The notes under the pieces were generated by a model. The model searched no databases, was not told the origin of the DNA, and was given only the letters and a program-made list of their open reading frames with translations. Shown piece after piece: positions 11,464 through 60,318 of a stretch of DNA of 64,000 nucleotides. The number at the start of each line of letters is the position of its first letter. The stretch's first letter is position 1. The stretch is from Patescibacteria group bacterium. GTDB lineage: Bacteria; Patescibacteriota; Microgenomatia; UBA12405. The DNA lies in NCBI GenBank assembly GCA_013387215.1, contig WARW01000003.1:10227-74226 (forward strand), given 5' to 3'. The position numbers were made by a program, and so were the translations under genes.

Positions 11464-13010
11464 AATTTAATATAAACAAAGGCCTCCTAGAAAGAGGAAA
11501 AATTGATAAGTCGTTAATAGGGCTTAATTTGGCCATGACTGCTTTTTATTTTTCTTGGTGGCTGACACCGTCGCATATAGATAATAAGTTTTTATATTTT
11601 CTATTGTTTATAGGGGAAATTTATCATATTTTTATGGCCTTAACTTTTTGGCACACAATTGCTCCGGGGCAATTAAAAATTAAAAAAGTGAATAGATCTA
11701 AAAAATTCTTGCCTACAGTAGACATATTTATAACAGTAGCAGGAGAACCAGTAGAAATAGTAAAACAGACAATAAACAAAGTTTTGAACATGAACTATCC
11801 AAAATCTTTTATATATATATTGAATGATAGTTTAGTGGCTAAAAAAGAAAATTGGAGAGAGTATGAATATTTAGCTGAAGAAATGGGGGTTTTTTGCATA
11901 ACCAGAACCGTGTCTGGAGGTGCAAAAGCCGGCAATATTAATCATGCCTTAAAAATAACCACAGGCAAATTAATTGCCATCTTTGATGCCGATATGCAAC
12001 CAAGACCGAATTTTTTATCCAGATTAATACCCTATTTTAGAAACAAAAAGGTTGGTTTTGTGCAAACTCCTCAATATTATAAAAACTGGCAAAATAATTT
12101 GGTTAGCAGCGGCGCATGGGCCCAACAAGAGTTTTTTTTCGGCCCAATAATGAAAGGGAAAGAAAAAAGTAATTCGGCTTTTATTTGCGGAACAAATTTT
12201 TTGATAAGACGAACTGCTTTATTGGAAGCTGGCGGAATGCAGGAGAATAATATTGCAGAGGATTTTTTAACATCACTGTTTGTTCATAATAATGGCTGGC
12301 TGTCTTATTATGTAAACGAAGTGTTGAGTGAGGGTCTGGCTCCAGAAGATATGTTGTCATACTTTAAACAACAACTAAGATGGGCCAGAGGGTCATTGGA
12401 AATCGTATTTACTAGAAATAATCCTCTTTTCAAAAAAAGATTGAGTTGGCACCAAAGGATTGAATATTTATCATCATCTTTGTATTACTTTAATGGAATT
12501 ATAGTTCTAATCGATATTGTAATGCCATTGTTGTTTTTATTTTTTGGAATACGACCAGTAGCAGCTAGCTCCACCTCGTTTGCACTTTTCTTTGTACCTT
12601 TTATATTTTTAAATTTATATTCACTAAGAATGGCTTCTGCCGACAGAATATCCTTTCAAGCATTATCATTCACTCAGTCGTCTTGGACACTCCAAATTTT
12701 GGCTCTAAAATCAATTCTTTTAAAACAAAAAATGAAGTTTGAAGTTACTTCAAAAAGGGCTCTGACTGGAAACTACATAAACTTAGCTTATCCTCATATT
12801 ACTTATATTGTTTTAGCATTTATGGGATCGATCACAGCTGTGCTTAGAGAAGGAATTAACCCATCAGTAATAACAAACATTGCCTGGGTATTAGTAAATA
12901 CAATATTATTTATTCCATTTATTATGGCAGCTTATAAGGCTGAAGGTGTTCCACGACCCAAACTGGAAATCGATCTGGCAACTGAAAATGAAAGAAAACA
13001 TGTCAAATAA
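11460..13010 (+). CDS. GT2 processive beta-glycosyltransferase, cellulose-synthase-like, no PilZ domain
   Basis: 'FDADMQP' DxD, 'VQTPQYY', 'QQLRWARGSLEI' (QxxRW), TM helices flanking the GT domain; ends at 516 aa without a PilZ region. Confidence 0.85.
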   Translation: MKFNINKGLLERGKIDKSLIGLNLAMTAFYFSWWLTPSHIDNKFLYFLLFIGEIYHIFMALTFWHTIAPGQLKIKKVNRSKKFLPTVDIFITVAGEPVEIVKQTINKVLNMNYPKSFIYILNDSLVAKKENWREYEYLAEEMGVFCITRTVSGGAKAGNINHALKITTGKLIAIFDADMQPRPNFLSRLIPYFRNKKVGFVQTPQYYKNWQNNLVSSGAWAQQEFFFGPIMKGKEKSNSAFICGTNFLIRRTALLEAGGMQENNIAEDFLTSLFVHNNGWLSYYVNEVLSEGLAPEDMLSYFKQQLRWARGSLEIVFTRNNPLFKKRLSWHQRIEYLSSSLYYFNGIIVLIDIVMPLLFLFFGIRPVAASSTSFALFFVPFIFLNLYSLRMASADRISFQALSFTQSSWTLQILALKSILLKQKMKFEVTSKRALTGNYINLAYPHITYIVLAFMGSITAVLREGINPSVITNIAWVLVNTILFIPFIMAAYKAEGVPRPKLEIDLATENERKHVK

Positions 13011-14448
13011 ATTACTAGTGCTGATAGTTCTGGTGACATCCCTAATCAGCATTTATTTTCTTTTTACACAATCGATTCGTTTAGATGAGGCTCAATCGAT
13101 ATGGATGTTTACTAAATCGATTCCCGGGATGCTCAAACTTACTTCTCAAGATGTAAATTTACCGCTTTACGGAATAATTATGCATTTCTGGCTGCAGATA
13201 TTAGGAATAAATATTGTTAGAGCCAGATTATTATCTTTGATATTCTTTTTAATAACATTACCAGTTCTGTACCAACTAATAAAAGAATCGAGCGATAGTG
13301 ATCATGCAATTTTAACAGTAGCATTTTTTGCTTTTTCTCCTTTTATTTTGTGGTACACCAGTGAAGCCCGAACTTATACGTTGTTTATATTAATTGCTTG
13401 TTTACAACAATTATATTTTTTACGATTAATCAGAAGTGGTGGAAATAACGGAAAATTTGGTTATTTTATTGGTACTGCACTTGGATTTTATACACATTAT
13501 TTTTTTATTTTCCTTTTAATTGCCCAAATAGTTTTTGTACTGAGTTTAAGAATAGTTAAAGGTAAAAATAAAAATAGGTTAATTAAACGTCACCTAATTT
13601 TAGATTTTGGAGGTTTATTGGTTTTTATTCCTTGGATTTATTATATTTTTAGGACCGGAGGAGCGGTTAACACACAGCCATTAATTCCTATTCCAAACAG
13701 CTATAGCGTGGTGCAGACTTTTGTTAATTTTGTGGTGGGATTTCAATCTCAATCAATTCAAGCAGTCTTAATTTCTCTTTGGCCACTTTCGACTGTAATT
13801 TTATTTTTAATGTTTACACATAGGAAACAAAAATTGGTTAAAAATGTCGAATACTTTTTTTTAGTCACTTTTTTACCGATTATTTTAGTGTTTTTAATAT
13901 CTTTTATAAAACCCATTTTTTTATCTAGATATTTAATTTTAGTGACACCAACATTATTTTTTATAATTGCATGGATAATTTTGAGTAATTCTAAAAAAAT
14001 ATCTTTTTATTTATCGGTATTAATTTTGCTTTTGATGTTTAGTTTTTTAATGTTTCAGAACATTTCGGCAGCAACTCCAAGTAAAGAAAACTATAGTGAA
14101 GTTAGCCAATATTTGAACCAATATACAACACCAGAAGATATTGTGGCAATTACTGCTCCATTTACTATTTATCCAATTGAATACCAATACCAAGGTGAAG
14201 CTAAATTAGTAACAATTCCTAATTGGGATAAATATGTTGAAGGACCAATCCCCCAATATAATTCTGATAATCTAGTTAAACAAATTAATGACTATAAAAC
14301 TCAATATAATCGTTTGTTTGTGGTTTTTTCGTATGATCAGGGATATGAAAATGATATAAAAAATTATCTGGACACACATTATGCCATCATGGGAATGGGA
14401 AAGTTTTCGGACAGTATTGAAATGAGAATCTACAAATTGAGATACTAG
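12988..14448 (+). CDS. GT39-family membrane glycosyltransferase (PMT_2/ArnT-like)
   Basis: 'RLDEAQS' (WxDEA-like), 'DVNLPLYGII' (HPPLYY-like), 'WYTSEARTYTL'; ~11 TM helices; start placed at internal ATG to minimise overlap (long ORF begins 12946). Confidence 0.7.
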   Translation: MKENMSNKLLVLIVLVTSLISIYFLFTQSIRLDEAQSIWMFTKSIPGMLKLTSQDVNLPLYGIIMHFWLQILGINIVRARLLSLIFFLITLPVLYQLIKESSDSDHAILTVAFFAFSPFILWYTSEARTYTLFILIACLQQLYFLRLIRSGGNNGKFGYFIGTALGFYTHYFFIFLLIAQIVFVLSLRIVKGKNKNRLIKRHLILDFGGLLVFIPWIYYIFRTGGAVNTQPLIPIPNSYSVVQTFVNFVVGFQSQSIQAVLISLWPLSTVILFLMFTHRKQKLVKNVEYFFLVTFLPIILVFLISFIKPIFLSRYLILVTPTLFFIIAWIILSNSKKISFYLSVLILLLMFSFLMFQNISAATPSKENYSEVSQYLNQYTTPEDIVAITAPFTIYPIEYQYQGEAKLVTIPNWDKYVEGPIPQYNSDNLVKQINDYKTQYNRLFVVFSYDQGYENDIKNYLDTHYAIMGMGKFSDSIEMRIYKLRY

Positions 14449-14997
14449 CTATTCCCGACAACAATCAAGAATCTTACCAATAACACCACTAACCTTACCC
14501 ATAAAATCTGTTTTATCGGCTTTTAAAGGTTTGTCTGATTTTGATAAAACTGGAGTATCGTTTTTGGTTTCTGATTTAAAGTCGTCAGATTTAAGCATGC
14601 CAAGATTTAGGCCCCAAAAAAGATTGTAGAGGTTATATGATTTTTTGAAAAATTCTTCCGAAGCTTTAATATCGCCCTTGGTTTGAGCTTTGGTACCAAC
14701 CTCCATAAGTCTCATGGAAGCAGCTAAAAGATGTTTACTAATACACCAGACTTCACCCTCATAATCTTTAATAATCATTTTCAAAAGCCCTTTGCGCATA
14801 TCGCGAACTTCATTAAGAAGATCATAATATTTTGTTTTGCCTGTTTTTCCGCCAGAGAAGAAAAGATGTTCTTCAATGGAAATAAGGTTCATGATGGCAA
14901 TAGATAGGTCTTCATCGGAAGACAAATCCAAAGTTTCACCTTTTTCCATTTTTTTAACTTTGTTTAAAAATTGATTAATATCTTCATTATTGGTCAT
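14449..14997 (-). CDS. hypothetical cytoplasmic protein
   Basis: 182-aa ORF convergent with the GT39 gene; no recognisable motif. Confidence 0.4.
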   Translation of the reverse strand: MTNNEDINQFLNKVKKMEKGETLDLSSDEDLSIAIMNLISIEEHLFFSGGKTGKTKYYDLLNEVRDMRKGLLKMIIKDYEGEVWCISKHLLAASMRLMEVGTKAQTKGDIKASEEFFKKSYNLYNLFWGLNLGMLKSDDFKSETKNDTPVLSKSDKPLKADKTDFMGKVSGVIGKILDCCRE

Positions 14998-15014: not shown

Positions 15015-15470
15015 TTAAAGGTTAAAAATAAGTTTAAAAGCAAGAGTGCTTAGGATTAATAAACTTAGCGGAAAAACAACCCGCTGATAATAAAAAAGAA
15101 CCTTACCGTGGTTGCGTTTTTTGGTGTAAAGATTAATAAAGTTTCCTAAGATTACTGCCACAAGACCTAGAGTTTCACCAAGAACAATTTTATCGATTCC
15201 CAAAATCGAATCCTTTCCACTGATTTGATTAGTAAAACTAAAATAGAACAATGTTAGTCCATATAATATTAAAGATAAAATTATGGGATTTCTTAAAATT
15301 CTATTTTTAAATTTAGAGGCCAAATAGAAAGCGATAACAGTATTAAGACCGCCGATCCAGATATTAATTAAAAGCGAATCAATGCCTAATTTTTCAGCTA
15401 AAATCATACCACCACCAACTGTAACTATACAAACTGGACATTGAGCATAAACTTCTTTGACTAAGAACAT
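15015..15470 (-). CDS. small polytopic membrane protein with CPVC motif, last gene of copper operon
   Basis: 'MFLVKEVYAQCPVCIV' then ~4 TM helices; start at internal ATG to avoid overlap with copA. Confidence 0.4.
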   Translation of the reverse strand: MFLVKEVYAQCPVCIVTVGGGMILAEKLGIDSLLINIWIGGLNTVIAFYLASKFKNRILRNPIILSLILYGLTLFYFSFTNQISGKDSILGIDKIVLGETLGLVAVILGNFINLYTKKRNHGKVLFYYQRVVFPLSLLILSTLAFKLIFNL

Positions 15471-15489
15471 AATAGTATATTTTAACTTA

Positions 15490-18400
15490 TTATTTTTGAT
15501 TGAACTTGTAATAATTGTCAGCAAACTGACGAGGCACAAAATGCATCATATCGAGGCTGGTTAAGTTCTTTTTGGGAAGTCCGGTAATAATAATATTACT
15601 GCCAAAAAAATTGTTTATAGTGTCAAACTTTTTTTGAAAAAGCTTTTCTTTTATCATCATTCGAGCCTCATCGTAGCCAACATAAGTGGATAAATATTTA
15701 GTGCCAGCTACTTCATAATTTGTTTTAAGCGGATCGATAATTGATAATAATTGCTGCGGAATATTGGTTTGGTCATACAAATATATTAGTTTCAAATCGC
15801 CAAGAGCAGTTTCGGTAACTAATATATCACTTTTAGCGGTTAGATTGGCAAAAGATTTTTGATTAAAGATGTGATATTCATCGATCAAAGTTCCAGTTGG
15901 GGCAAGAATACCAACAATTTTAATTTTTGGCAGTCCAAAAAAGTTGGGTATTTCAGAACCAACACCTTTAATTAGGCCTTCTTCAATCATCATACTGGCC
16001 TCTTTAGATCCTAAAATAACATTATTTTCTCCTGATAAATCAAAGTTGCCTGCAGATAATTTTAAAGAGGATGGCAGATTGTCGACTCCTAAAATTAATT
16101 TAGGATTATTTTTGACAAAACCAATTTTTGAAGGATTATTTTTTAAAAGCTCATTTATTTCGGTTTTTATGGATGGCCGAGATTGGATATAGGCAACTAG
16201 ACCAGAATTGGATTGGGCATCAGCTCCCATTTTTGAAGAAAAGCTGGCAAATTCAATAAAAATAAGTAAAAAGAATGAAATCATCACAAAAGGAGCCAAT
16301 TTTGATATCCAATTAAACTTCCCTGGTTTGAAAAATTTTAAGGTTAAAGAGTTAGCCACCACTGAAACCGAAGATAAAGCCATGGCCAGACCTGCAAGTT
16401 CAGGTTTAAGAATTAAACCAATCCCCATCAAAGCACGAGCAGCGATGGGAATTCCCAGAATATTATAAAAGAGAGCAAAGAACATATTTTGACGAATTTT
16501 ACCTACGGTTTGGCGAGAAAGATCTATGGCTGTCAGAACTCCATTTAAATCATTACTGATAATGACAATACTACCTGATTCCATGGCGATATCAGCACCA
16601 CTACCCATAGCAATACCAAGATCAGATTGAGTTAAAGCAGGGGCATCGTTGATACCATCGCCAACCATAGCCACTTTAAAACCAGAATCTTGAAGTTTTT
16701 TGACTTCCTCCGCTTTGTTTTGAGGTAAAACTTCAGCTAATACATTGGTAATACCAAGCTGTTTGGCAATTGCGTCAGCAGTACGGTGATTATCACCAGT
16801 GATCATATATACAGCAATGCCCATTTTTTTAAGTTTGGAAACAACAGCAACTGAAGTTTCTTTAAGTTGATCGGCTACAGCAATTAATCCTAAAACTTTT
16901 TCTTTATTGGCGATAAGCATGGCAGTTTTACCATCATTCTCAAGCCTCTCCATATCATAAGAAGAAGTTAAGGGAATTTGATTCGCTTCCAATAGTTTAC
17001 GATTACCAACATAATAGGTTTGACCATTGACTACTGCTTTAACACCAGACCCAGGGATGGCCTGAAAATCTTCAATCGCATAGTTGATTGCCCCACAAGA
17101 TTGGCTATAACGAACAATCGATTCAGCCAAAGGATGTTCAGATTTTTGTTCGATTGAGTATAGAATTGAAAGAATTGTCTGATCACCTGGAAGATAGTTA
17201 ATAAAATCAGTTACTTCAGGTTTACCTTTAGTGAGAGTGCCAGTTTTATCAAAGACAATAGCTTCCAAATTTTGGGCCATTTCCAGCGGTTCGCCACCTT
17301 TAATTAAAACTCCATATTCAGCACCTTTACCAGTTCCAACCATAATAGAGGTAGGAGTGGCCAAACCAAGAGCACAAGGACATGCAATAACGATAACTGC
17401 CACAAAAGCTAATAAGGCGAAAGTTAAAGAAGACCCAAGCAAAAAGTACCAAATTACAAAAGTAAGGACGGCGATACTAATTACAGCTGGTACAAAAATT
17501 GAGGAAATCTTATCGGCAAAACCTTGAATTGGAGCTTTTGAACCTTGAGCATCTTCAATTAATTTGACGATTTGAGACAAAGCAGTGTCGGCACCAATTT
17601 TAGTGGTTTTAAACTCAAAAGAACCAGTCTTATTGATTGAAGCGGTATAAACTTTTGATCCAATTTGTTTTTCAACTGGTAATGATTCGCCAGTTAGAAT
17701 AGATTCATCAACAGCCGAGTAACCAGAAACTACTTCCCCATCCACAGGAATTCTTTCGCCAGGGCGAACAACAACAGTGTCGCCTACCATTACCTGTTCA
17801 ACAGGAATATCCACTGGTTGGCCATTTTTTAGAATACGAGCAGTTTTTGGGGCCAACCCCATTAATTTTTCAATAGCCTCAGAGGTCTTTCCTTTAGCTT
17901 TAGCTTCGAGCCATTTACCTAATGATACAAAAGTGATTAAGAAGGCGGCGACCTCAAAATAAAGATTGGGGATTTTGGAACCATTTAAGCCAATAAATGA
18001 ACCAGTTTCACTAAAATAATTAAAAAATTCAAATATGCTGTAAAAATAGGCTGTACTTGTGCCTATAGCAACTAAAGAATCCATGGAAAAAGTACGCATT
18101 TTTAAGGCTGACCAAAACCCAGCAAAAAAATTAGAACCAACGTAAAAAAGAACCGGAGTGGCTAATAATAAAGAGATCAATCCGGCGTATGGCATGACGA
18201 TGCTTTTAAATGGAACAGTATTGGTAAAATCGTAGACCATGAATAGAATCATGGGGATGCTTAGGATTAAACCGGTGAAGAATTTTGAAAACCAATATTT
18301 TATTTCCTGTTTTCTTTTTTCGTGCTGATTTTCTGTTTTTTCGTTAGGAAGCGAGGCTTTATAACCAGCTGCTTCAATGCTTTTAATCAAATCATCGATT

Positions 18401-18582
18401 TTGGCTGAACTAGGACTGTATACAACTCTGGCTTTTTCAGTGGCAAAATTAACATTAACCTCATTAACACCATTAACTTTTTTTAAAGACCGCTCGATAA
18501 GACCAGCGCAGCTGCTACAATGCATGCCAGTAATATCCAAATTTACGGCAATATTTTTTGTAGATGGGTTTTGATTTTCCAT
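15490..18582 (-). CDS. copA: copper-translocating P1B-type ATPase with ~285-aa C-terminal extension
   Basis: N-terminal HMA '[12 protein letters not shown]'; '[10 protein letters not shown]'; 'DKTGTLT'; 'GDGINDAP'; 1030 aa versus ~740 for the core, with an extra TM and a soluble tail. Confidence 0.9.
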
Positions 18583-18584
18583 AT

Positions 18585-18803
18585 TTATAGAAGCTGGGCT
18601 GTATAGCCAGAATTTTTTATAATTTTTATTAAATCTTCTGAATTAAGTTTGTCAGAATCAAATTCAACAGTAACTAGTTTTGTTTCTAAATTAGCATCAA
18701 CAGAAATAACACCATTAGTATCTTCTAAGTCCATTTGAATTAATTTTGGACAGGAAGGACAATGCATGTCGGAAACTTTAAATGTATTTTTTTGATTAGT
18801 CAT
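18585..18803 (-). CDS. copZ: copper chaperone (HMA domain)
   Basis: 72 aa, '[11 protein letters not shown]' MxCxxC motif. Confidence 0.8.
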
Positions 18804-18811
18804 GTTGGTTT

Positions 18812-19222
18812 TTAATTAATAACTTCAAAAGTACCCGTGTACATGCCCATGGTGCAACTGAAACGATAGGTTCCAGGTGCAACTGGAGTAAATTCTTTTG
18901 TAACTTGAGAGTTAGGGATAAGATCAATTCGGTCTGAGAAAAGCCCGTGAGAAACAATACTTCCAGCGCAGCCAGCATTGCCAGATGAAGTAATTTGCCA
19001 AACCACTGGTATGTTGGCTTTAATTTTAAAATTGTTTGGAGAATAACCAGCAGCCGAAGCAGTCATCTTAACAATTTGTTTACCATCTACAACTTGAACT
19101 AAGTCAGGGCCAGAAGCTGCATTGGAAACAGAGGGGTGTTTTTGGCTAAATATGAAAAAACCAAAAACAACGATTAAAACTATCGAACCTAAAACATAAA
19201 ATAGATTAGAAATATTTTTCAT
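18812..19222 (-). CDS. membrane-anchored cupredoxin-like domain protein
   Basis: N-terminal TM; C-terminal 'GCAGSIVSHGLF...YRFSCTMGMYTGTFEV' paralogous to the C-terminal domain of the neighbouring fusion protein; alternative TTG start at 19249. Confidence 0.55.
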   Translation of the reverse strand: MKNISNLFYVLGSIVLIVVFGFFIFSQKHPSVSNAASGPDLVQVVDGKQIVKMTASAAGYSPNNFKIKANIPVVWQITSSGNAGCAGSIVSHGLFSDRIDLIPNSQVTKEFTPVAPGTYRFSCTMGMYTGTFEVIN

Positions 19223-19230
19223 AGTTTTTA

Positions 19231-20694
19231 TTAATGATGACAACCACAACCTTTTGCACCAGATTCAATAATAGTTGGGGCTGCTCCAACAGAGTTGATA
19301 TTGCCTGATTTATCAAGCACTTCAAAAGTGCCCGTAACCATGCCCATCCAACAACTAAACCGATAAATTCCAGGAGTGTTGACAGTAAATTCTTTAACAC
19401 TGGTGGTTCCTGGAACTAAATCAATTTGACCGGAAAATAGTTGGCGGGAGATGATGGCATTAGTGCAACCACTAGTGCCCGTATCCTCTATTTCCCATTT
19501 AACAGGTATTCCAGCGCGAACTTTAAGTTTATTTGGAGCATATCCAGCAGATGAAGCTTTAATATGGATGATTTGCTTACCATCAATAATTGGAGGTAAG
19601 TCAGTGGCAATATTTTGAGATATGGTTTTAGGGGAAGTTAGAGATTCCAGATTAGAAACGCCTAAAACTGCCAATTGGGCATTTATATTAAAAAAGGCGA
19701 AGAATAAAACCAGAATTCCGGCAATTATAGAAAACTGCTGAGAAAATTTTGGATTAGAAAAAAGTTTAATACTGGTTAAGCCAATTGTGAGCAGGCCTGG
19801 TAGGGTGCCAATAGCAAATAAGCCCATGATTAAGGCACCTTGTATTGGATTACCAGAAGCTAATGCCAGTGCTTGGACTGTAATAGTAAAACCGCAAGGC
19901 AAGAAAAAGGTTAAAGCTCCCATAATTACCGGAGCAAATTTGCCAGTAAAATTAGACTCGTCTGAAAATCGGCGGGTTAAAGATTTGGGTAATTGAAGAC
20001 GAAATTTTTGCAGAGCTTTTATGCCAAGCATTTGTAAACCCAGAAGAATCATTAAGACAGATACAGCGATCACTAGGCTGGCTGAAAAAAGCGGCGTCAA
20101 TCTGAAGAAATTACCAATTTGGCCCAGAATGGCGCCAAAAGCAAGATAAGATAAAACCCGACCAGTATTAAACAAAAAGTGCGGTTGTAGTTTTTTGACG
20201 GTGGAATCGGAATTTGAATAAAGATTGTTCCATTGTTGAGACAAAGATAAAATAATACCGCCAACAAGAGCCGCGCAACTGGAAAAACCAGCGAGCAGAC
20301 CGAAAAGGAAAAACACAGGTAGAGAACTTTGTGCATTAACTGATATTAAAGAGGAAAATCCAGATTTACCTAATAAAATAAAAACTAAAATAAATAAAAG
20401 GCTAAAAAATAATGAAGAAAAAACATTGAGACGTTTTTTTTCTATTGGGCAAGAAACAGCTTTGGTGTTTTGTTTAGAAAATGGCTTGAGTGAAAACCGA
20501 TAGTTATCTTTTAAAAAGATATCGTTTAAATCTTTTAAAGATATTTTTATATTTCTTTTTGTTTCAAGAGATAAAGTTGACTTAGCTAAGGAAACCTCGG
20601 CTTTAACAACTCCTTGCTGCTTTAAAAGTTTCTTTTCGATTAGAATTTCACAAGAAGGACAATGCAGGCCAGAAATATAAAATAATTGTTTCAT
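19231..20694 (-). CDS. HMA domain - DsbD/CcdA-like permease - cupredoxin fusion with C-terminal GCGCHH tail
   Basis: 'ISGLHCPSCEILIEKKL' (HMA); ~6-8 TM central region; 'SGCTNAIISRQLF...YRFSCWMGMVTGTFEV' (cupredoxin-like); terminal 'KGCGCHH'; start at internal ATG (MKQLFYISG). Confidence 0.6.
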   Translation of the reverse strand: MKQLFYISGLHCPSCEILIEKKLLKQQGVVKAEVSLAKSTLSLETKRNIKISLKDLNDIFLKDNYRFSLKPFSKQNTKAVSCPIEKKRLNVFSSLFFSLLFILVFILLGKSGFSSLISVNAQSSLPVFFLFGLLAGFSSCAALVGGIILSLSQQWNNLYSNSDSTVKKLQPHFLFNTGRVLSYLAFGAILGQIGNFFRLTPLFSASLVIAVSVLMILLGLQMLGIKALQKFRLQLPKSLTRRFSDESNFTGKFAPVIMGALTFFLPCGFTITVQALALASGNPIQGALIMGLFAIGTLPGLLTIGLTSIKLFSNPKFSQQFSIIAGILVLFFAFFNINAQLAVLGVSNLESLTSPKTISQNIATDLPPIIDGKQIIHIKASSAGYAPNKLKVRAGIPVKWEIEDTGTSGCTNAIISRQLFSGQIDLVPGTTSVKEFTVNTPGIYRFSCWMGMVTGTFEVLDKSGNINSVGAAPTIIESGAKGCGCHH

Positions 20695-20710
20695 ACTACG
20701 TAGTGTAGTA
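20694..20710. promoter_or_regulatory. dyad motif TACTAC-N5-GTAGTA abutting start codon of HMA-permease gene
   Basis: TACTACGTAGTGTAGTA, perfect 6-5-6 inverted repeat filling the 23-nt gap between M56 gene stop and next start. Confidence 0.4.
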
Positions 20711-20717
20711 GATGTTT

Positions 20718-21626
20718 TCATTCTTTGCAATGGTCTGATAAAGAGATGTTTTGGTGAGAGAATAAAACTTCGACACATTTGACCAAATGGTTGCATTGAT
20801 AGAAAATTGTAGATTTACCAATAAAGGTAGTAGTAAACAAAATGAGAACCAATAAAAATGAATTTAGGGTAAAGAAGTTTTTGAAATTAGGCTTCTTTTT
20901 ATCAACTAAAACCGAAACGCGTTCATGAAATTCAGAAAAATTATTGAGATAAAAATTATTTCTTGTGTCAGGTTCTTCTATTTTTAACAGAGCAGAAACC
21001 AATGGTGTTTTTGATTTCAATTGAGTTTGGGCATAATTATCACAATTTATTTCTACCAATGCAGAATAATTTTTGAATATCCAGACTTTCTTTGGGAAAG
21101 AAGGTAAAAAGTGGTTGATTAAATCAACAATAAAATCTTTTAAAGGGTCAAAATTAAATTGATGTTTTTGTTCATGAAAAATAATCGCTTCCAATTCTTT
21201 TGGATTAACGGTTTTAATTAATTTTTCCGATATATAGATTTGAGGATTTAAAAAACCTGAAGTAAAGGCAATGACTTCTTTAATTTTGATCAAGTTATAC
21301 TGATTTTGTCTTTTTGATTTAAGGTTGTTTAAAAATTTTTTAGTTAAAAATATTTTATTAAAAGAATAATCGAGAGATTTAAAGAAGCGAAGTAAAAGAA
21401 TAAATAATATTATTCCGGATAAAACATTTATATAAAATGTCGAAGAAATAATTAAGGGAATTAAATTTTGATGATTATTTTTTAGGGCATCTATTAAAAA
21501 TATCAACTGCATCGAAAATCCAGAGAATATCTTTAAAAAGGCGAGTGATAAAAAGGATATGTAAAGAATTCCTAAAGTTAGGATGAATAAAAAAGCTAGA
21601 TTTCTTTGAAAACTGATTTTAGTCAT
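20718..21626 (-). CDS. M56-family (BlaR1/MecR1-like) membrane zinc protease without penicillin-binding sensor domain
   Basis: 4 TM helices, 'IIFHEQKHQ' HEXXH; 302 aa; Cys/His-rich C-terminus 'CNHLVKCVEVLFSHQNISLSDHCKE'. Confidence 0.65.
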   Translation of the reverse strand: MTKISFQRNLAFLFILTLGILYISFLSLAFLKIFSGFSMQLIFLIDALKNNHQNLIPLIISSTFYINVLSGIILFILLLRFFKSLDYSFNKIFLTKKFLNNLKSKRQNQYNLIKIKEVIAFTSGFLNPQIYISEKLIKTVNPKELEAIIFHEQKHQFNFDPLKDFIVDLINHFLPSFPKKVWIFKNYSALVEINCDNYAQTQLKSKTPLVSALLKIEEPDTRNNFYLNNFSEFHERVSVLVDKKKPNFKNFFTLNSFLLVLILFTTTFIGKSTIFYQCNHLVKCVEVLFSHQNISLSDHCKE

Positions 21627-21984
21627 TATTTTTCAAATATTCTTTTAATAACTCAATATCATTTTTATTGTTTTTAATAGTATCGACAAATTGGGAAATA
21701 GCCAACTTACCATATGAACCGACCAAATTGCCGTAAATTCCAGACAGATTAGATTCGATAAACTGATCTTTATTTAAAATGGGAGTATAAAAATAAACTT
21801 TACCTTCTAGTTTTCTTTTGACTATTTTTTTATCTGACATTCGCTTGAGAACAGTCATAATTGTGGTGTAGGCCTGATCCCCTTTTAGACTCACTAGAAC
21901 TTCGGCAGGTTTTAAAGGACGGTTGGACTGCCAAAGGATATCCATTATCTTCTGTTCTAATTCACCAAGCATTTGGGTTTTCAT
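21619..21984 (-). CDS. BlaI/MecI/CopY-family transcriptional repressor
   Basis: 121 aa winged-helix 'LGELEQKIMDILW...PAEV...TIMTVLKRMSDKKIV...KVYFYTP'; no C-terminal Cys metal motif; 8-nt overlap with M56 gene. Confidence 0.8.
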   Translation of the reverse strand: MKTQMLGELEQKIMDILWQSNRPLKPAEVLVSLKGDQAYTTIMTVLKRMSDKKIVKRKLEGKVYFYTPILNKDQFIESNLSGIYGNLVGSYGKLAISQFVDTIKNNKNDIELLKEYLKNND

Positions 21985-21985
21985 A

Positions 21986-22002
21986 TACTACTTAGTGTAG
22001 CA
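21986..22002. promoter_or_regulatory. second copy of dyad motif, 1 nt upstream of repressor start codon
   Basis: TACTACTTAGTGTAGCA (one arm mismatch) in the 47-bp region upstream of the repressor gene. Confidence 0.4.
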
Positions 22003-22031
22003 TATTTTTAAAACTCCATGTTTATCAGTGA

Positions 22032-23420
22032 TTATTGCTTACATTGACCATTGTAGACTGGTGAACAACCAAGTTGGCTGTCGGTTCGCTGGCCAGAAGT
22101 GTCGTCAATATGTTTACGAAGCACTTGTTCTAGCTCATACCCTTTTTGAGGAATGGTGGAGATTAAATTGTTTTGCTCTTTAGGATCGTCATTTAGGTTA
22201 TAAAGCTCTTTGTTGCCGTTTTCTAAAGTTAAAATAAATTTCCAGCCATCTGGAGTCTGATAGGACCTTTTAAATGTATAAAGTCGATAATCAGTTTCAC
22301 TAAATACACTGTGGGCGACAGATTTACCATCAAAAACCGGAGTAAGATCAGCACCTTTTGTCTGTTCAGGAACAGGGTTTTTTATTCCCAATAAATCAAG
22401 CGCAGTTGGAACTATATCGAGAGTGCTTACTAGTTCATTAATTCTTTGGCCTTTGGTTTGGCCTGGTTTGTGAATAGCAAACAAAACATCAACTAGTTCA
22501 CCATAAAGAGTGTGGCCATGATCAAAACGATTATGTTCGTAGAATTCAGTGCCATGATCACTCATAACGATAATAATTGTATTATCCAAAAGTTTCATGT
22601 TGTTGATCTGATCCATAAAGTTTTTGAATTCAGCATCGGTACGATTAATCTTTTCATCATAAATAGCCCGCCAAAAAGCCACATCTTCGGGTGATAGATT
22701 TAAACTTTTACCAGCTAAACCGTCTTCACGAAGTTGACCTTGTTCGGTTGGACTGCCAGTATATTTGCCGTTATATGGCTTTGAAACATAGCGATAATCA
22801 AAACCACCGGCTGGTGCATGCTGCCCGTGAACATCATAGCCATGAAGGAAAAGGAAAAACTGCTTGTTTTTATTCTGCTTTAACCAGTCAACTGCTCTTG
22901 GTATGCTGCCATCGAAACCACCGAAGGTGCCAGTGGGTTCATAATAAGTATCAAAACCTTGACTAAAACCAAACTGCGGCCCAACTCCAGCATCGCCAGT
23001 AAAACCGCCAGTAACAAAACCTTGTTTTTTAAGAATTTCAGCAAGGGTCATGGCATTCGGAGAAAGTTTTTTTAAATTAGAAATAGTTCCCTTTTGGGCT
23101 TTCATATCGTAATCACTAAATTTGTTGACAACTTTATGTTCGGATGGATACATAGAAGTAAAGACAGACATGTGGGTTGGCACTGTCCAAGATGACGGAC
23201 TGACAGTATTGGTAAATAAAGTTGACTTATCAATAAAAGAATCTAAATTGGGAGTCGTGTTCAAAGAATAGCCATATTCATGCAAATGCTTGGCCTGCAA
23301 GCCATCGATCGAAACAAGAATAAGATTATATTTTTTATGAAATAGTTTTGGAGAAATCTTTATTGCAGCAACGGTTAGTAAGCTTAGAACAATGACACCA
23401 ATAAGAAATTTAATTTTCAT
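22032..23420 (-). CDS. membrane-anchored sulfatase-fold (alkaline phosphatase superfamily) protein, divergent paralog
   Basis: Signal/TM; 'TTPNLDSF', 'SSWTVPTHMSVFTSMYP', 'MSDHGTEFYEHNRFDHG' sulfatase-family motifs; lacks KKEGYF tail. Confidence 0.75.
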   Translation of the reverse strand: MKIKFLIGVIVLSLLTVAAIKISPKLFHKKYNLILVSIDGLQAKHLHEYGYSLNTTPNLDSFIDKSTLFTNTVSPSSWTVPTHMSVFTSMYPSEHKVVNKFSDYDMKAQKGTISNLKKLSPNAMTLAEILKKQGFVTGGFTGDAGVGPQFGFSQGFDTYYEPTGTFGGFDGSIPRAVDWLKQNKNKQFFLFLHGYDVHGQHAPAGGFDYRYVSKPYNGKYTGSPTEQGQLREDGLAGKSLNLSPEDVAFWRAIYDEKINRTDAEFKNFMDQINNMKLLDNTIIIVMSDHGTEFYEHNRFDHGHTLYGELVDVLFAIHKPGQTKGQRINELVSTLDIVPTALDLLGIKNPVPEQTKGADLTPVFDGKSVAHSVFSETDYRLYTFKRSYQTPDGWKFILTLENGNKELYNLNDDPKEQNNLISTIPQKGYELEQVLRKHIDDTSGQRTDSQLGCSPVYNGQCKQ

Positions 23421-23493
23421 ATCAAGTAAATCAAATTATATAAATGATATAAGTGTTATATTAAATTTATCTTTTAAAAGCAATAGACCGTAA

Positions 23494-25023
23494 ATGCGAT
23501 TGGGTAAAAAAATATTTATATTTGGTTTGCTGGGATTGATGATAATTGGGAGCGGTTTTTTGATTATTAAAAAAGTATCAAAAAAAACCTGCGATAAATG
23601 CAACATAATGCTTATCGATGTTGATATTTTGAGAGCAGATGAACTTCCCTGCTATGGATATCCCCGAAACACAATGCCAAACATTTGTGAATTTGCCAAA
23701 AAATCAGTAAGTTTTAAAGATAATTATTCGACTTCATATTGGACACTACCAAGTATTTTTTCAGTAATTACTTCACTATATCCAACTTTTCATCAAATGC
23801 AGGTTAATTATATGTTTGCACTGTCGTCTAGAATTCCGACTTTAGCAGAAACTTTACATAAGCAAGGATATAAGACTGTTTATGTGGGACAAAAAGACGA
23901 TTTAATGTCTAGTTATAATGGCGGTTTCCGCGGTTATGATTTAGTAACTCAAGAACCAATTGAAAAAGTAATTGATGAACTTTCAAAAAGTTCTCAACCA
24001 TGGTTTATACATAGGTATATCAGTGAATTGCATATGCCCTATTTATTGCCAGATAATTTAAAACCTGTGGAAGATTTGCCGGTTCCAAAAAATTTACCAA
24101 CTACTTATTACACTTTCGATTTATTTTTTAATAAATATTTAAAAGAACATTACAAAGAAATATTTAAACAGAAAGCAATCGATGAATATAGAGCAATTAT
24201 TTTAGGACCAGATAAGGCAGATGATATTAGTGTGACCAATCTTTTTGATAAATTGAGAGCTGACGATAAAACCATAAATGAATATTTATTAGATGCCTGG
24301 AGACCGAGATTAGATTTTTATTTAAAATCGTTTGACGGAAAAAATCCCCAAGATGTGGCTTATTTAAGAATGATGTATGACACTAAACTAAAATATCTTG
24401 ATGAAAAACTAAAACCTCTTTTACAAAGACTAGACTCGAGTTCATTGTCAAAAAACACTATTACAGTGATTATGTCGGATCATGGTGAAGCATTTGGCGA
24501 GCACGGAACGTTTTCACATGAGGATAATCATTTCACTGAACTATTTTACACTCCTTTAATAATCAGGGCTCCTCAATTTGAAGCAAAACAAGTTGAACAA
24601 ACCACAAATATAGTGGATATATTTCCGACTATTTTAGATTTAACAGGTGAGAAAAAAATTGATATGCATCAAGGGCAATCATTAGTACCTTATATGAATG
24701 GCCAAACTAAAAACGATACTACATTCAGCTTGAGCCAATCAATAGAAGGAACGCTTTTACAAAATAAGAATTGGCTGTACTTTTTACCAAACAGCGCTAA
24801 AGATATGAATGAATCAGAACTCTATAATAAAACCATCGACCCCCTGGAAAAAGTGAATGTGACTGGACAGAATCAAGATTTAGTTAAAACACTTTTTAAA
24901 AAAGCTGATTTATTCCGCTCATACGGAGGGATTGATTATGAAAAAGAAGAAATACCGTTGCCAAACCGGATGAAGTTGGACCCAGATAAAATAGAACGCC
25001 TTAAAAAAGAAGGATATTTTTAA
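23494..25023 (+). CDS. sulfatase-fold paralog 1 (Thr at sulfatase Cys position)
   Basis: N-terminal TM; 'DELPCYGYPRNTMPNICEF', 'STSYWTLPSIFS', 'MSDHGEAFGEHGTFSHE'; C-terminal 'KIERLKKEGYF'. Confidence 0.75.
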   Translation: MRLGKKIFIFGLLGLMIIGSGFLIIKKVSKKTCDKCNIMLIDVDILRADELPCYGYPRNTMPNICEFAKKSVSFKDNYSTSYWTLPSIFSVITSLYPTFHQMQVNYMFALSSRIPTLAETLHKQGYKTVYVGQKDDLMSSYNGGFRGYDLVTQEPIEKVIDELSKSSQPWFIHRYISELHMPYLLPDNLKPVEDLPVPKNLPTTYYTFDLFFNKYLKEHYKEIFKQKAIDEYRAIILGPDKADDISVTNLFDKLRADDKTINEYLLDAWRPRLDFYLKSFDGKNPQDVAYLRMMYDTKLKYLDEKLKPLLQRLDSSSLSKNTITVIMSDHGEAFGEHGTFSHEDNHFTELFYTPLIIRAPQFEAKQVEQTTNIVDIFPTILDLTGEKKIDMHQGQSLVPYMNGQTKNDTTFSLSQSIEGTLLQNKNWLYFLPNSAKDMNESELYNKTIDPLEKVNVTGQNQDLVKTLFKKADLFRSYGGIDYEKEEIPLPNRMKLDPDKIERLKKEGYF

Positions 25024-25068
25024 TAGGTGGTATATTAAACTGATAATTAAAAGTAATAGGCTGTTTTA

Positions 25069-26613
25069 ATGCTCAAAAGAAAATATCAAAAAATTATAAT
25101 CGGAGCGGGATTTATTTTGTTGATTATATTTGGGCTAATAGGACTTTTTAAACGAACAAACAAATTGCCATTTAAAGCCTGTACCAACTGCAACATTATA
25201 TTAATTGATATTGATATTTTAAGAGCTGATGAATTGCCTTGCTACGGATATTCCCGAAATACCACCCCAAACATTTGTAATTTTGCGAAAAAGGGTATGA
25301 TTTTTAATGACAACTATTCTCCATCCTATTGGACTATGCCTAGTATGTTTTCCACAATAACGTCTCTTTATCCAACTTTCCACCGAATCCAAATGAATTA
25401 CACTGAAGCTTTGTCGCCTAAAATTCCAACCCTTGCAGAAACTTTACACAAACAAGGCTACCGAACAATCTATATTGGCCCGGAAGACGACATGTTAAAA
25501 CACAATAATGGCGGCTTACGCGGTTATGATTTAGTGACTCAAGAACCGATTGAAAAAGTGGTAAGCGAATTGTCGAAAAGTTCTCAACCATGGTTTGTGC
25601 ATTACTATAATAGTGATTTGCATGCCCCATATTTATTTAATGAAAAACCTCAATTGATTGATAATCTTCCCGCCCCTAAAAATTTTCCAATTACTTATTT
25701 AGATTTCAGTATTCTTCTAAATAAATATTTAAAAGAACATTACAAAGAAATATTCAAACAGAAAGCTATCGATGAATATAGAGCAATTATTTTAGGACCA
25801 GATAAAGCAGATGATATTAGTGTAACTACTCTTTTTAACAATATTAGAGGCGATAAGAAAATAATGAATGATTATTTATTTGATGCCTGGGTGCCAATAT
25901 TAAACACTTATCTTGGTTCTTTTGATAAAAATAATGCCGATAATGTGGCATATTTACGCATGATATATGATACTAAACTTAAGATAATAGACGATAAGTT
26001 GGGAGCGCTTTTTCAAGAGTTGGATTCAGAAGCACTATCTAAAAACACCATAACAGCAATTTCGTCAGACCACGGAGAAGCGTTTGGAGAACATGGAACT
26101 TTTTCACATGAGGTTAACCATTTCACTGAACTATATTACACACCTTTAATAATCAAGGCTCCACAATTTTCAGGAAAAATAATTAATGAAACCAGCAGCA
26201 ACATTGATATTTTCCCGACTTTTTTAGACTTAACCGGCAGCGAAAAAATTAATAATCAGCAAGGCAAATCACTAGTTTCTTATATGAATAATGAAAATAA
26301 AAGTTTAGAGGGCTTTAGTGTCAGTGAATGTTCGGAAGGAATATTGCTGCAAAATAAAAAATGGTTGTATTTTTTATCAAATGAGGTTTCAGAATTTAAT
26401 AAATCGGAACTTTACGACAGGAAAAATGATCCATTAGAAAAAAATAATGTGGTTGGAAAGAATCCAGAATTAGCTAGATCACTTTACCGACAGGCTGATT
26501 TGTTCCGATCCTATGGCAAAATTGAATATAAAAAAGAAGAGATACCAATTAGTGAGCAAATTAAGTTGGATCCAGAAAAGATCGAACGTCTTAAAAAAGA
26601 AGGCTATTTTTAA
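25069..26613 (+). CDS. sulfatase-fold paralog 2
   Basis: ~70% aa identity to paralog 1; ~108-nt near-identical tract; tail 'KIERLKKEGYF'. Confidence 0.75.
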   Translation: MLKRKYQKIIIGAGFILLIIFGLIGLFKRTNKLPFKACTNCNIILIDIDILRADELPCYGYSRNTTPNICNFAKKGMIFNDNYSPSYWTMPSMFSTITSLYPTFHRIQMNYTEALSPKIPTLAETLHKQGYRTIYIGPEDDMLKHNNGGLRGYDLVTQEPIEKVVSELSKSSQPWFVHYYNSDLHAPYLFNEKPQLIDNLPAPKNFPITYLDFSILLNKYLKEHYKEIFKQKAIDEYRAIILGPDKADDISVTTLFNNIRGDKKIMNDYLFDAWVPILNTYLGSFDKNNADNVAYLRMIYDTKLKIIDDKLGALFQELDSEALSKNTITAISSDHGEAFGEHGTFSHEVNHFTELYYTPLIIKAPQFSGKIINETSSNIDIFPTFLDLTGSEKINNQQGKSLVSYMNNENKSLEGFSVSECSEGILLQNKKWLYFLSNEVSEFNKSELYDRKNDPLEKNNVVGKNPELARSLYRQADLFRSYGKIEYKKEEIPISEQIKLDPEKIERLKKEGYF

Positions 26614-26654
26614 TTAGGTTAATATATAAATAATATATTGAATAAATAAATTAC

Positions 26655-28196
26655 ATGAAGATTCTTTTTTTTAGAGAAAAAAAATACCGCAAGATTATTG
26701 TGTTAGTTGGTATAGCATTAATAATTGGGTTAGTACTTGCATGGAAAAGATTGCCTGAAAAAAAGTGTGAACACTGCAATATTGTAATGGTAGATATTGA
26801 TGTCTTAAGAGCTGATGAGTTGCCTTGTTATGGATATTCCCGAAACACCACTCCCAATATTTGCCAGTTTGCCAAAAAGGCGACTATTTTTAAAGATAAT
26901 TATTCGACTTCATATTGGACTTTACCTAGTATGTTTTCAACAATTACCTCTATGCTACCCACCTTTCATAAGGTGAGAACTGAATTTATCAACAAACTGT
27001 CCCCTGATACAAAAACACTAGCCGAAGTTTTACATAGCCAGGGATATCGAACAGTATATATTGGCGACGGCCAGAATCCTGCTTTATTAACCAAAGATAA
27101 CGGAGGCTTGAGAGGTTACGATATTGTGACAAAAGAACCGATCGAAAAAGTAATTGCAGATCTTTCAAAAAGCTCACAGCCATGGTTTATCCACTATTAT
27201 TTAGTTGATTTACATATGCCTTATTTATTACCAGAAAATGTGAAACCAATGGAAGATCTGCCAGCTCCAAAAAATTTGCCAATAAACCAAACCGATTTTG
27301 ACCGCATGTTAAATACCTATTTAAAAAAGCACTATAAACAAATATTTAATGAAAAAGCGATTGGAAAATACGGCTCGGTTATTTTAGCTCCAGATAAAGC
27401 AGATGATACCAGTGTGACTAAACTTTTCAACGATTTAAGATGGACTAGTAAAAGCATGACTGAATATTTTATTGACAGCTGGAAGCCTATTTTTAATTCA
27501 TATATGGATTCATTTGATAAGAATAATCCCAATGATGTGGCATATATTAGAATGATGTACGATACAAAATTAAAACTGGCTGACGAGCAACTACAATCTC
27601 TTTTTATAAAATTAGAGACAAAACCATTTTCTGAAAATACGATCTCGATAATTATGTCAGATCATGGAGAAGCGTTTGGAGAACATGGAACTTTTTCCCA
27701 TGACAATAATAGTTATACGGAACTTTATCACACGCCGTTAATAATTCGGGCACCTGGACTGCCTGCTAAAATTGTGGACCAAACTTCAAGCAACCTAGAT
27801 ATTTTTCCAACAGTTTTAGACTTAAATGAAATAAAAAAATTAGACAGTTTTCAGGGAAAATCATTAGTGGACAGTGTCAATAAAAAAACAGAAACTAAAT
27901 CATTTAGTCTAAGCGAATATTCTGATGGTGTAATTTTACAAAACCATGACTGGCTGTATTTCTTACCATTTTGGGTTGATAAGTTTGAAAACTCAATGTT
28001 GTTTGATAGAAATAAAGATCCTAAGGAAAAAAATAATGCAGCAAAACAGAATTTAGAGTTAACTCACTTTCTTTATAAACAAGCTGATTTATTGAGATCT
28101 TATAATGGAATTATTTATAAGCCAGAGGAAATTCCAAGCGATATTAAATTAAATCCTGAAAAAATAGAGCGTCTTAAAAAAGAAGGCTATTTTTAA
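26655..28196 (+). CDS. sulfatase-fold paralog 3
   Basis: Same motifs; tail 'KIERLKKEGYF'. Confidence 0.75.
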   Translation: MKILFFREKKYRKIIVLVGIALIIGLVLAWKRLPEKKCEHCNIVMVDIDVLRADELPCYGYSRNTTPNICQFAKKATIFKDNYSTSYWTLPSMFSTITSMLPTFHKVRTEFINKLSPDTKTLAEVLHSQGYRTVYIGDGQNPALLTKDNGGLRGYDIVTKEPIEKVIADLSKSSQPWFIHYYLVDLHMPYLLPENVKPMEDLPAPKNLPINQTDFDRMLNTYLKKHYKQIFNEKAIGKYGSVILAPDKADDTSVTKLFNDLRWTSKSMTEYFIDSWKPIFNSYMDSFDKNNPNDVAYIRMMYDTKLKLADEQLQSLFIKLETKPFSENTISIIMSDHGEAFGEHGTFSHDNNSYTELYHTPLIIRAPGLPAKIVDQTSSNLDIFPTVLDLNEIKKLDSFQGKSLVDSVNKKTETKSFSLSEYSDGVILQNHDWLYFLPFWVDKFENSMLFDRNKDPKEKNNAAKQNLELTHFLYKQADLLRSYNGIIYKPEEIPSDIKLNPEKIERLKKEGYF

Positions 28197-28209
28197 ATAA
28201 ATTTGAAAG

Positions 28210-31292: not shown

Positions 31293-31298
31293 AAACAG

Positions 31299-44816: not shown

Positions 44817-45524
44817 ATGGCTACCGATCCACTTAAAATTGCCATTAAAGGTACAACTCAAGACCATTTGCCCATCGAAGATGTGGTTGATGGAGTGGTG
44901 ATTTTGAAAGACGGATCATGTGCGATGGTAATGCAGATATCTTCCGTCAATTTTGATTTGTTATCAGAAAAGGAACAATCGGCTTTGGTTTTTGCTTATG
45001 GCGGAATTTTAAATTCTTTGAACTTTCCAATTCAAATAATTATCAGATCAAACGCTAAAGATGTGTCGGTTTATCTTAATAATTTGAAAGACGCCGAAGA
45101 AAAACAAAGCAATTCTCTTTTGAAACAAAGAATTCAACTATACCGAAAGTTTGTTGAAGAAACGGTTAAAAAAAATGATGTGTTATCAAAATCTTTTTAT
45201 GTGGTGGCTCATTTTTCTGCGTTGGAACTGGGAATAAAAAATGCCGGCAAGCAAACATTGAGCACTATTCTGCCTCCTTTAGGAAAATCGCGTTCAACAG
45301 AATTACCATTTTCCAAAGATTATATTCTAGATAAAGCAAAAGCTAGTTTGGAACCGAAAAGAGATCATTTAATGAGATTGTTTTCCCGATTAGGATTGGA
45401 AATTAAACAATTAAACACCAAAGAATTAATCGAACTGTATTATAAAATTTATAATGAAGAAACGGCTGTAAATCAGAAACTGCAAACACTGAATTACAAT
45501 GCACCAATTGTTACCACTAAATAA
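44817..45524 (+). CDS. hypothetical protein, T4SS-cluster associated
   Basis: 235 aa between PrgI-like and VirB4 genes; no family recognised. Confidence 0.4.
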   Translation: MATDPLKIAIKGTTQDHLPIEDVVDGVVILKDGSCAMVMQISSVNFDLLSEKEQSALVFAYGGILNSLNFPIQIIIRSNAKDVSVYLNNLKDAEEKQSNSLLKQRIQLYRKFVEETVKKNDVLSKSFYVVAHFSALELGIKNAGKQTLSTILPPLGKSRSTELPFSKDYILDKAKASLEPKRDHLMRLFSRLGLEIKQLNTKELIELYYKIYNEETAVNQKLQTLNYNAPIVTTK

Positions 45525-45525
45525 A

Positions 45526-48213: not shown

Positions 48214-48249
48214 GTTTTAGGTCTGAATGATTGATATAATTTGTATAAA

Positions 48250-48283
48250 CAGTGCCTTGTTAATATCTAACACTGTTTTTTAC
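48250..48283 (+). terminator. possible terminator/attenuator after VirB4 gene
   Basis: aacagtg-N16-cactgtt followed by TTTTT; large loop, weak. Confidence 0.25.
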
Positions 48284-48316
48284 GCTTTTGTAAATTTTAT
48301 TTATATCTTGTAATAA

Positions 48317-59971: not shown

Positions 59972-60318
59972 CCTAAAATAATATACATTTGATATATTCC
60001 CCTAGCTAAAATAATGACGTTTTTACAACGTGAAAACCCCTAAAATCAGTACTGTGCTGACATTTTTTTGATAGAAAATTTTTTCTTTTCAAGATTCCCC
60101 TCTCGGAACCAGGTTCGATTTTGAAAAATACCATCTGAACTCGTTTGTATTTACATTAAAAATACTTACATATATCTATAATCACGTCATTACATTTTTT
60201 CACGTTACTCCTTATAATTAATTAGCTTGGTTATGACTATTTTTGGCAAGTAATAACCGCATAATAACCGATTTATTACCGTAAGAAAATAGTAAACATT
60301 TAAACTAAAATAAGTAGT

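Follow-up and report, generated by a model that had tools for sequence, protein, structure and literature searches.

Genes and features of the locus

The 64,000-nucleotide window analysed here, from contig WARW01000003.1 of a Patescibacteria group bacterium, has a G+C content of ~32%, and its relatives are metagenome-assembled genomes (MAGs) of Candidatus Shapirobacteria, which belong to the Patescibacteria or candidate phyla radiation (CPR). On its minus strand lies a cluster of copper genes headed by the genes for a BlaI-family repressor and a membrane protease. An original prediction, made from the sequence, had described this cluster as seven tightly packed genes under a BlaI/BlaR1-type repressor-protease pair, with the C-terminal tail of the protease as the copper sensor. 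All seven open reading frames (ORFs) named there were found in place, with gene spacings of -8 to +23 nt; however, the unit has two promoters and not one, and eight genes rather than seven. The gene to be added encodes a 182-residue protein and is syntenic, in six of the related loci that reach that far, with the gene for a small membrane protein with an N-terminal QCPVC motif (the CPVC gene); the operon probably ends with it. By a modest balance of probability, we read the locus as an eight-gene copper-detoxification operon under a repressor-protease pair that resembles both BlaI/BlaR1 and PetR/PetP. The positions of the individual features are collected in Table 1.

Table 1. Features of the repressor-protease pair and the associated copper genes in the 64,000-nucleotide window
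Feature	Position	Strand	Basis
Operator O1 and repressor-protease promoter	21986..22002	-	Matrix score 28.4 bits; same-position site in every related locus
BlaI-family winged-helix repressor, 121 residues, no Cys	21619..21984	-	PF03965
M48/M56 membrane zinc protease without sensor domain, 302 residues	20718..21626	-	HEQKH 21162-21176; E192 and D196 invariant
Protease C-terminal tail, residues 272-302, proposed metal-sensing element, predicted extracytoplasmic	20721..20813	-	
Operator O2 and structural-gene promoter	20694..20710	-	Matrix score 27.4 bits
HMA - DsbD_2/CcdA-like membrane domain - CupA-type cupredoxin fusion	19231..20694	-	Pfam, PDB alignment
Membrane-anchored cupredoxin, CupA-like C...CxMxM	18812..19249	-	Start TTG 19249 or ATG 19222
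CopZ-type HMA copper chaperone, 72 residues	18585..18803	-	Domain matches
P1B-type Cu(I) ATPase CopA, 1030 residues	15490..18582	-	TIGR01511, E 4.7e-190
Conserved membrane protein, 151 residues, N-terminal QCPVC	15015..15470	-	Synteny
Conserved helical protein, 182 residues, C-terminal CCRE	14449..14997	-	Synteny; always with CPVC gene

Operators, repressor and protease

The window contains exactly two copies of the palindrome CTACN5GTAG, where 0.16 would be expected. One core palindrome (21988-22000) is situated 3 nt before the repressor ATG and the other (20696-20708) within the 23 nt that separate the stop codon of the protease gene from the fusion ATG; the full operator consensus covers 17 bp, TACTACA-N3-TGTAGTA. 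The minus-strand sequence of O1, TGCTACACTAAGTAGTA, contains a -10 hexamer TACACT (21999-21994) with an extended TGn element, and since the repressor ATG follows 9 nt downstream, the transcript is probably leaderless. In O2, with the minus-strand sequence TACTACACTACGTAGTA, a -35 element TTGCAA lies inside the last protease codons and the -10 hexamer TACACT at 20707-20702, so that the fusion ATG at 20694 is found 7 nt past it. A weight matrix derived from 26 distinct sites, all from other genomes, gave O1 and O2 the scores listed in Table 1 and the next best position in the window 13.6 bits. In each related Shapirobacteria-type locus that was fetched, a first site precedes the repressor gene and a second follows the protease gene. 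Amongst 31 distinct sites, 17 show a TACAnT in the left arm of the operator that is preceded, at a distance of 16-18 nt, by a perfect TTGACA, and 9 more have an extended TGn -10 element. In most of the 31 the start codon comes 7-9 nt past the -10 hexamer; at some, the spacer itself contains an ATG. Each operator thus lies across the -10 element and the transcription start of a leaderless promoter, a geometry classic for repressors, and on this comparative evidence repression at both operators appears highly probable.

TACA/TGTA half-sites are typical of the BlaI/MecI/CopY family (PMC7253601). The cop box TACANNTGTA is absent from the whole window and the two operators, with their 3-nt spacer, do not conform to the cop box operator (KACANNTGTA / RNYKACANNYGTMRNY); since no cop box was found anywhere in the window, the operator is not a CopY box. 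The possibility that O2 is an RNA terminator hairpin was rejected, as it has a stem of 5 bp and no T-run, and carries -35 and -10 elements on site. The third-best matrix match (60300-60322, TTAAACTAAAATAAGTAGTATGA) ends in the ATG of a 1017-residue DUF4012 protein; it is probably not an operator, for its likeness is limited to the right half-site and the TAAAAT-N7-ATG layout of a leaderless promoter.

The repressor matches the Pfam family Penicillinase_R at residues 6-118 of 121 with 82.2 bits (cut-off 22.6; E 4.5e-23), and its sequence matches in the PDB are BlaI of Mycobacterium tuberculosis (2g9w, the best), BlaI of Staphylococcus aureus (1sd4) and MecI (1okr). As had been pointed out, the CxCx4CxC copper-binding tail is missing, and on inspection the whole protein was found to be devoid of Cys. 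Its best match in NCBIfam is CopY_TcrY (TIGR02698), with an E-value of 8e-12 and 45.5 bits, below the equivalog cut-off of 121.95. The original prediction had placed copper sensing outside the repressor, and in agreement with this no Cys or His is conserved across the 15 distinct orthologues that were aligned. In a full-length alignment with S. aureus BlaI, Q98-F99 (21688-21693) falls on the N101-F102 cleavage site; F99 is invariant in the 15 orthologues and is preceded by Q or N, within a conserved motif AI[S/A][Q/N]-F-V[D/E]. The identity is 31% to PetR over 72 residues (DNA-binding domain) and 25% to S. aureus BlaI over 110 residues, and the repressor appears to be about equally distant from PetR, S. 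aureus BlaI and M. tuberculosis BlaI.

The protease gene overlaps the repressor gene by 8 nt. Its product carries HEQKH (residues 151-155) and, further downstream, VEINCD; none of H151, E152, H155, E192 and D196 varies among 85 sequences, and the Peptidase_M48 model matches with 31 bits, passing its cut-off. The protein is about half as long as BlaR1 and ends 31 residues past its last membrane helix; with so short a tail and no Pfam match to a penicillin-binding domain of the class D beta-lactamase-like kind, it lacks such a sensor, as had been proposed. A confident AlphaFold2 model based on the 85 sequences (predicted local distance difference test (pLDDT) 93.2, predicted template modelling (TM) score 0.89) places the catalytic domain between helices 62-101 and 249-271 and folds the tail as two short helices (pLDDT 80-92). 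Two methods of structural comparison agree on BlaR1 (8exp/8exq) as the best match of this model in the PDB (Foldseek probability 1.0, TM-score 0.41). Lys/Arg-rich segments flank the catalytic domain and, together with the known topology of BlaR1, place that domain in the cytoplasm and the tail outside; the tail is thus predicted to be extracytoplasmic, at the place of the beta-lactam sensor of BlaR1.

The protease ends exactly with the Cys/His-rich segment quoted in the original prediction, CNHLVKCVEVLFSHQNISLSDHCKE, in which the pattern C278-x-H280-x3-C284 ... D298-H299-C300 can be recognised. An alignment of 26 sequences with 27-54% identity shows no variation at C278, H280 and C284, and at least 90% of these sequences have C300. 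Only 16 positions of this alignment are invariant, the zinc ligands included, so that the tail, whose loss from orthologues would have told against a sensing role, is as strictly retained at these three residues as the zinc ligands are. A profile search with the protease retrieved 81 cluster representatives at E<=1e-30, 1096 at E<=1e-10 and 5425 at E<=1e-3. Roughly 50 of the ~68 closest representatives have CxHx3C right after the last membrane helix, nearly all of them with a later Cys, often as HC; more distant representatives have other Cys-rich tails or no tail.

Related loci and the structural genes

The same pairing of repressor and protease beside copper genes, for which a search in related genomes had been suggested, was present with the two-operator layout in 13 out of 13 other distinct loci. 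These were drawn from the loci labelled L001-L014 and L017-L020, with L006 left out as its contig stops at the protease gene. Copper genes are still found beside the pair at a protease identity as low as 28% (L017). In 11 of the 13 loci the pair is directly followed by genes for the HMA-DsbD_2-cupredoxin fusion, CopZ and CopA; in L001 it is followed by CopZ, the CPVC gene and the 182-residue gene, and in L002/L014 the latter two genes stand behind O2 with the cop genes just upstream. A third operator copy is seen in L020 (13905-13917) beside a divergent Thioredoxin_4/DsbA-like gene, and in L002/L014 the O1 region lies between the repressor gene and a divergent DsbA-like gene (L002 6728-7632). 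The regulon may therefore include an extracytoplasmic thiol oxidoreductase.

Two further, independent lineages were found to carry related pairs. In a subfamily from MAGs of Thermodesulfobacteriota/Deltaproteobacteria, with 376 members at E<=1e-15, the protease has a tail of the form CxxxHC...CxxHC and two Cys in the first outer loop. In three out of three loci of this subfamily that were inspected, a BlaI-like gene and the protease gene are followed by genes for an OEP protein, a CusB/CzcB protein and an RND pump (L021 187-7567, L022 5570-12918, L023 5586-12685); the site upstream of the repressor gene reads TTGACA-TTCTACA-N3-TGTAGAA-TATAAT and a second site follows the protease gene. In L023, the pair is preceded by COX1-3 and SCO1. 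The relatives from Firmicutes (Rummeliibacillus suwonensis, L016 8269-11400; a Planococcaceae MAG; L015 8545-11482) have no Cys/His tail; their proteases possess only a Cys/His-containing early loop, and the sites read ACTACA-N3-TGTAGT. Rummeliibacillus is a cultivable organism carrying such a pair.

Amongst the structural genes of the window, the fusion gene has a longest ORF of 19231-20796, and its true start is almost certainly ATG 20694. The cupredoxin domain of the fusion best matches the metal-binding domain of Streptococcus pneumoniae CopA (4f2f) and CupA (2mry); since it aligns with CupA-type sites with both Cys and the CxMxM motif in register, the metal of the operon is identified as Cu(I). 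Both CcdA-type membrane Cys are kept (SSCAAL, LPCGF) and the C-terminus reads GAKGCGCHH (19231-19260), an arrangement which suggests a thiol or Cu(I) relay across the membrane. In CopA, the motifs CPC, YN and MxxSS are visible. The ATPase also bears a C-terminal extension of ~270 residues (15493-16320; residues ~755-1030), composed of an extra hydrophobic helix and a soluble region with two similar segments that both contain NFFG. This extension is 76-80% identical in most Shapirobacteria CopAs (1016-1127 residues) and is absent from the 780-residue CopA of L017 and from that of L011.

The longest ORF of the CPVC gene is 15015-15539, with the true start probably at 15470. The 182-residue protein is helical, has an invariant EVWC besides the C-terminal CCRE, and travels with the QCPVC protein (L001 9210-10226; L002 9230-10253). 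Pfam gave no match at E<=10 for the CopA extension, the CPVC protein or the 182-residue protein. Across the loci, identities are 51-83% for the CPVC protein, 64-75% for the 182-residue protein and 28-53% for the protease. The two genes follow the second operator directly in L002/L014 and have an operator of their own in L008 (15517), and they may be core members of the regulon.

Elsewhere in the window, positions 22032-32831 hold seven tandem paralogues of the sulfatase/alkaline-phosphatase superfamily (462-521 residues each; six on the plus strand and one on the minus), with PMT_2-type glycosyltransferases on either side (12946-14448 and 32839-34227). A 904-residue TraG/VirB4-like P-loop ATPase followed by a 1037-residue protein with a C-terminal NlpC/P60 domain (45499-51430) may constitute a conjugation or type IV secretion-like module.

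Proposed mechanism, alternatives and significance

The following course of events may be envisaged. The Cys-free repressor dimer would bind O1 and O2, each lying over the -10 element and start site of a leaderless promoter; the promoter at O1 would drive the repressor-protease pair and that at O2 the genes for the fusion, the cupredoxin, CopZ, CopA, the CPVC protein and the 182-residue protein. Outside the cell, Cu(I) or another thiophilic metal would bind Cys278, His280 and Cys284, together with His299 and Cys300, and a signal passing along the last membrane helix would then switch on the co-translated protease. Its cut would fall at Gln98-Phe99, within the dimerisation helices of the repressor, and would release both promoters and induce copper export. 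The steps beyond repression are proposed on account of homology with BlaI/BlaR1 and PetR/PetP and of conservation. By analogy, proteolysis of the repressor by its M56 partner is likely; that the signal is a thiophilic metal is also probable, with slightly less assurance; and for the tail as the sensing element, with a capacity to bind metal that is suggested by the comparative data, the balance is close to even and tips slightly in favour. The idea of a BlaR1-like derepression circuit with the protease tail as putative copper sensor thus draws support from the operators, the invariant Phe, the structural match to BlaR1, the synteny and the conservation of the tail.

Several observations weigh against this interpretation. 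The Peptidase_M56 model matches the protease with 27.3 bits, just below its curated Pfam cut-off of 31, and a profile of the protease searched against PDB sequences retrieved no BlaR1 chain; as only weak HtpX and Ste24 matches were obtained, the relation to BlaR1 is seen by structure only. In the tail, H280 is replaced by Y in one orthologue and the third Cys is absent in another. The two Met ligands proposed for PetP in the loop between transmembrane helices 2 and 3 are absent; the loop of the window protease reads DALKNNHQN and is not conserved. Five of the 15 repressor orthologues (L007, L008, L012, L019 and L020) have an internal CxC (P-C-S/T/L-C-K, e.g. PCSCK; alignment positions 69-71) and others a single Cys there, the window protein having none. 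This CxC lies between the winged helix and the dimerisation helices and could, in some lineages, provide an extra site for direct Cu(I) binding. Finally, the Firmicute pairs, on their CTACA-N3-TGTAG-type sites, precede genes for DsbA/BdbD-, DsbB/BdbC- and TlpA/ResA-like proteins and not copper genes.

The Firmicute loci keep alive the alternative that the tail is a thiol-redox sensor, which would be oxidised by copper-catalysed chemistry or by general extracellular disulfide or oxidant stress, the resulting disulfide activating the protease so that copper is sensed indirectly. The operators near DsbA-like genes in L020 and L002/L014 and the CcdA/DsbD-like thiol-relay domain of the fusion protein agree with it, and thiol chemistry could be the signal common to the Shapirobacteria and Firmicute groups. 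Nevertheless, the tail has an invariant His and its conserved Cys are odd in number, which is more in keeping with a Cys2His(+Cys/His) metal site than with a disulfide switch; copper is well known to be bound outside the cytoplasm by Cys2His sets, as in Sco proteins. The target genes, moreover, are specific for Cu(I) (CopA, CopZ and CupA-type cupredoxins), and the deltaproteobacterial loci, with their link to heavy-metal RND pumps, support metal sensing by proteases of the M56 type with a Cys/His tail. We regard the redox alternative as unlikely.

Rather less credence is given to the suggestion that copper is sensed by a partner (the CupA-like cupredoxins, CopZ, or the QCPVC or CCRE protein) and passed on to the protease or the repressor. 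The CPVC and 182-residue proteins are more conserved than the protease and their genes lie directly behind O2 in L002/L014, and S. pneumoniae CupA is reported to exchange copper with CopY (PMC5646241). However, neither gene occurs in the sequence fetched for L017, L009, L012 and L013, where contigs are short or cut off; the invariant tail residues would need an explanation of their own; and the partner genes are themselves under the operator, and their products would therefore be at low levels before induction.

It is very improbable that the repressor itself senses cytoplasmic copper in the manner of CopY, with the protease serving turnover or a second input: CopY_TcrY is indeed its best NCBIfam match and one third of the orthologues contain the internal CxC, but the match stays far below the equivalog cut-off, the window carries no cop box, neither Cys nor His is conserved in the family, and the repressor gene always overlaps the protease gene. 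A non-metal signal such as cell-envelope damage or an antibiotic, with the cop genes adjoining the pair as part of a general stress regulon, is just as improbable, for although M56 proteins without a sensor domain are very common (the 5425 representatives mentioned above, most of them uncharacterised), copper genes adjoin the pair in every one of the 13 other loci, the cop promoter itself is overlaid by an operator and a second lineage is tied to metal RND pumps.

The closest known system is the PetR/PetP pair of Synechocystis sp. PCC 6803, where experiments have shown that PetR is degraded and that this depends on copper and PetP (Garcia-Canas et al. 2021; bioRxiv 10.1101/2020.07.31.226407). 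PetRP switches between plastocyanin (petE) and cytochrome c6 (petJ); according to a 2023 review (PMC10141476) it does not govern copper-homeostasis genes, and what BlaR homologues do in other bacteria has yet to be clarified; a 2026 review gives the mechanism of PetP only as 'copper activates PetP'. Both systems combine a BlaI-family regulator that lacks the CopY Cys motif with a four-helix M48/M56 protease that has no sensor domain and whose gene overlaps that of the regulator, share the conserved Phe at the BlaI cleavage position, and use inverted repeats spaced by 3 nt (GACA-N3-TGTC for PetR, i.e. xACA-N3-TGTx; TACA-N3-TGTA in the window). They differ in that the window, which has no photosynthetic genes, presents CopA, CopZ and CupA-type genes as targets, and in that its protease has an invariant Cys/His tail past the last helix as proposed sensor. 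The hosts belong to Patescibacteria and Cyanobacteria respectively, and the protease is likened to PetP by its described features.

With BlaI/BlaR1 and MecI/MecR1 of S. aureus, the pair shares the repressor fold and full-length alignment, the N/Q-F scissile position, the TACA/TGTA half-sites and the autoregulated arrangement of repressor and protease, besides BlaR1 being the best structural match. In contrast to these systems, the window protease has no penicillin-binding domain (302 versus ~585 residues), the operator spacer is 3 nt and not 2, and the gene order is repressor then protease, co-directional with metal-gene targets instead of beta-lactamase or PBP2a. The CopY-CupA-CopA operon of S. 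pneumoniae and the CopY/CopR systems of Enterococcus/Lactococcus likewise place a BlaI-family repressor before a CopA ATPase, and the pneumococcal system further resembles the locus in its CupA-type C...CxMxM cupredoxins and in having two operators per operon (PMC7253601). CopY, however, binds Cu(I)/Zn through its C-terminal CxC and is not proteolysed (PMC7253601), while the repressor described here is Cys-free and paired with a protease, fails TIGR02698 and acts on an operator other than the cop box. Having tested the defining features of both and found them absent, we consider that the locus is neither a CopY system nor a beta-lactam BlaR1 system. The CusRS/CopRS two-component systems are alike by function only, in that a membrane sensor is proposed to detect extracytoplasmic copper and induce efflux; the proteins are unrelated, and phosphotransfer contrasts with the proposed irreversible proteolysis of a repressor.

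In the open-access literature, no other BlaI/BlaR-type control of copper or heavy-metal efflux was found. The concept is partly known, as PetR/PetP is already a copper-dependent BlaI/BlaR switch with a different output and a different proposed sensor. The regulators of copper efflux described so far are direct metal binders (CopY, CsoR, CueR) or two-component kinases, and PetR/PetP, the only protease-based copper switch known, governs an electron-carrier swap; the present locus and its relatives point to the same logic in metal detoxification, in at least two other phyla. The probability is a little short of even that sensor-less M56 proteases with short extracytoplasmic Cys/His tails, together with BlaI-type repressors acting on CTACA-N3-TGTAG, form a widespread, uncharacterised class of transmembrane metal sensors. 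If so, such pairs would replace CopY, CsoR, CueR or two-component systems in the control of metal efflux, with CopA operons as targets in Patescibacteria and Cus/Czc RND pumps in Thermodesulfobacteriota, and with the tail this protease-based mode of sensing would gain its first defined metal-binding site, which even PetP still lacks. The locus offers a concrete, invariant and mutable candidate sensor, CxHx3C...HC, along with a defined operator and leaderless promoter layout. It may also aid the annotation of 'M56 family metallopeptidase / BlaI' pairs, which number in the thousands and are now read as regulators of beta-lactam resistance, including those of CPR bacteria, organisms with few recognisable regulators.

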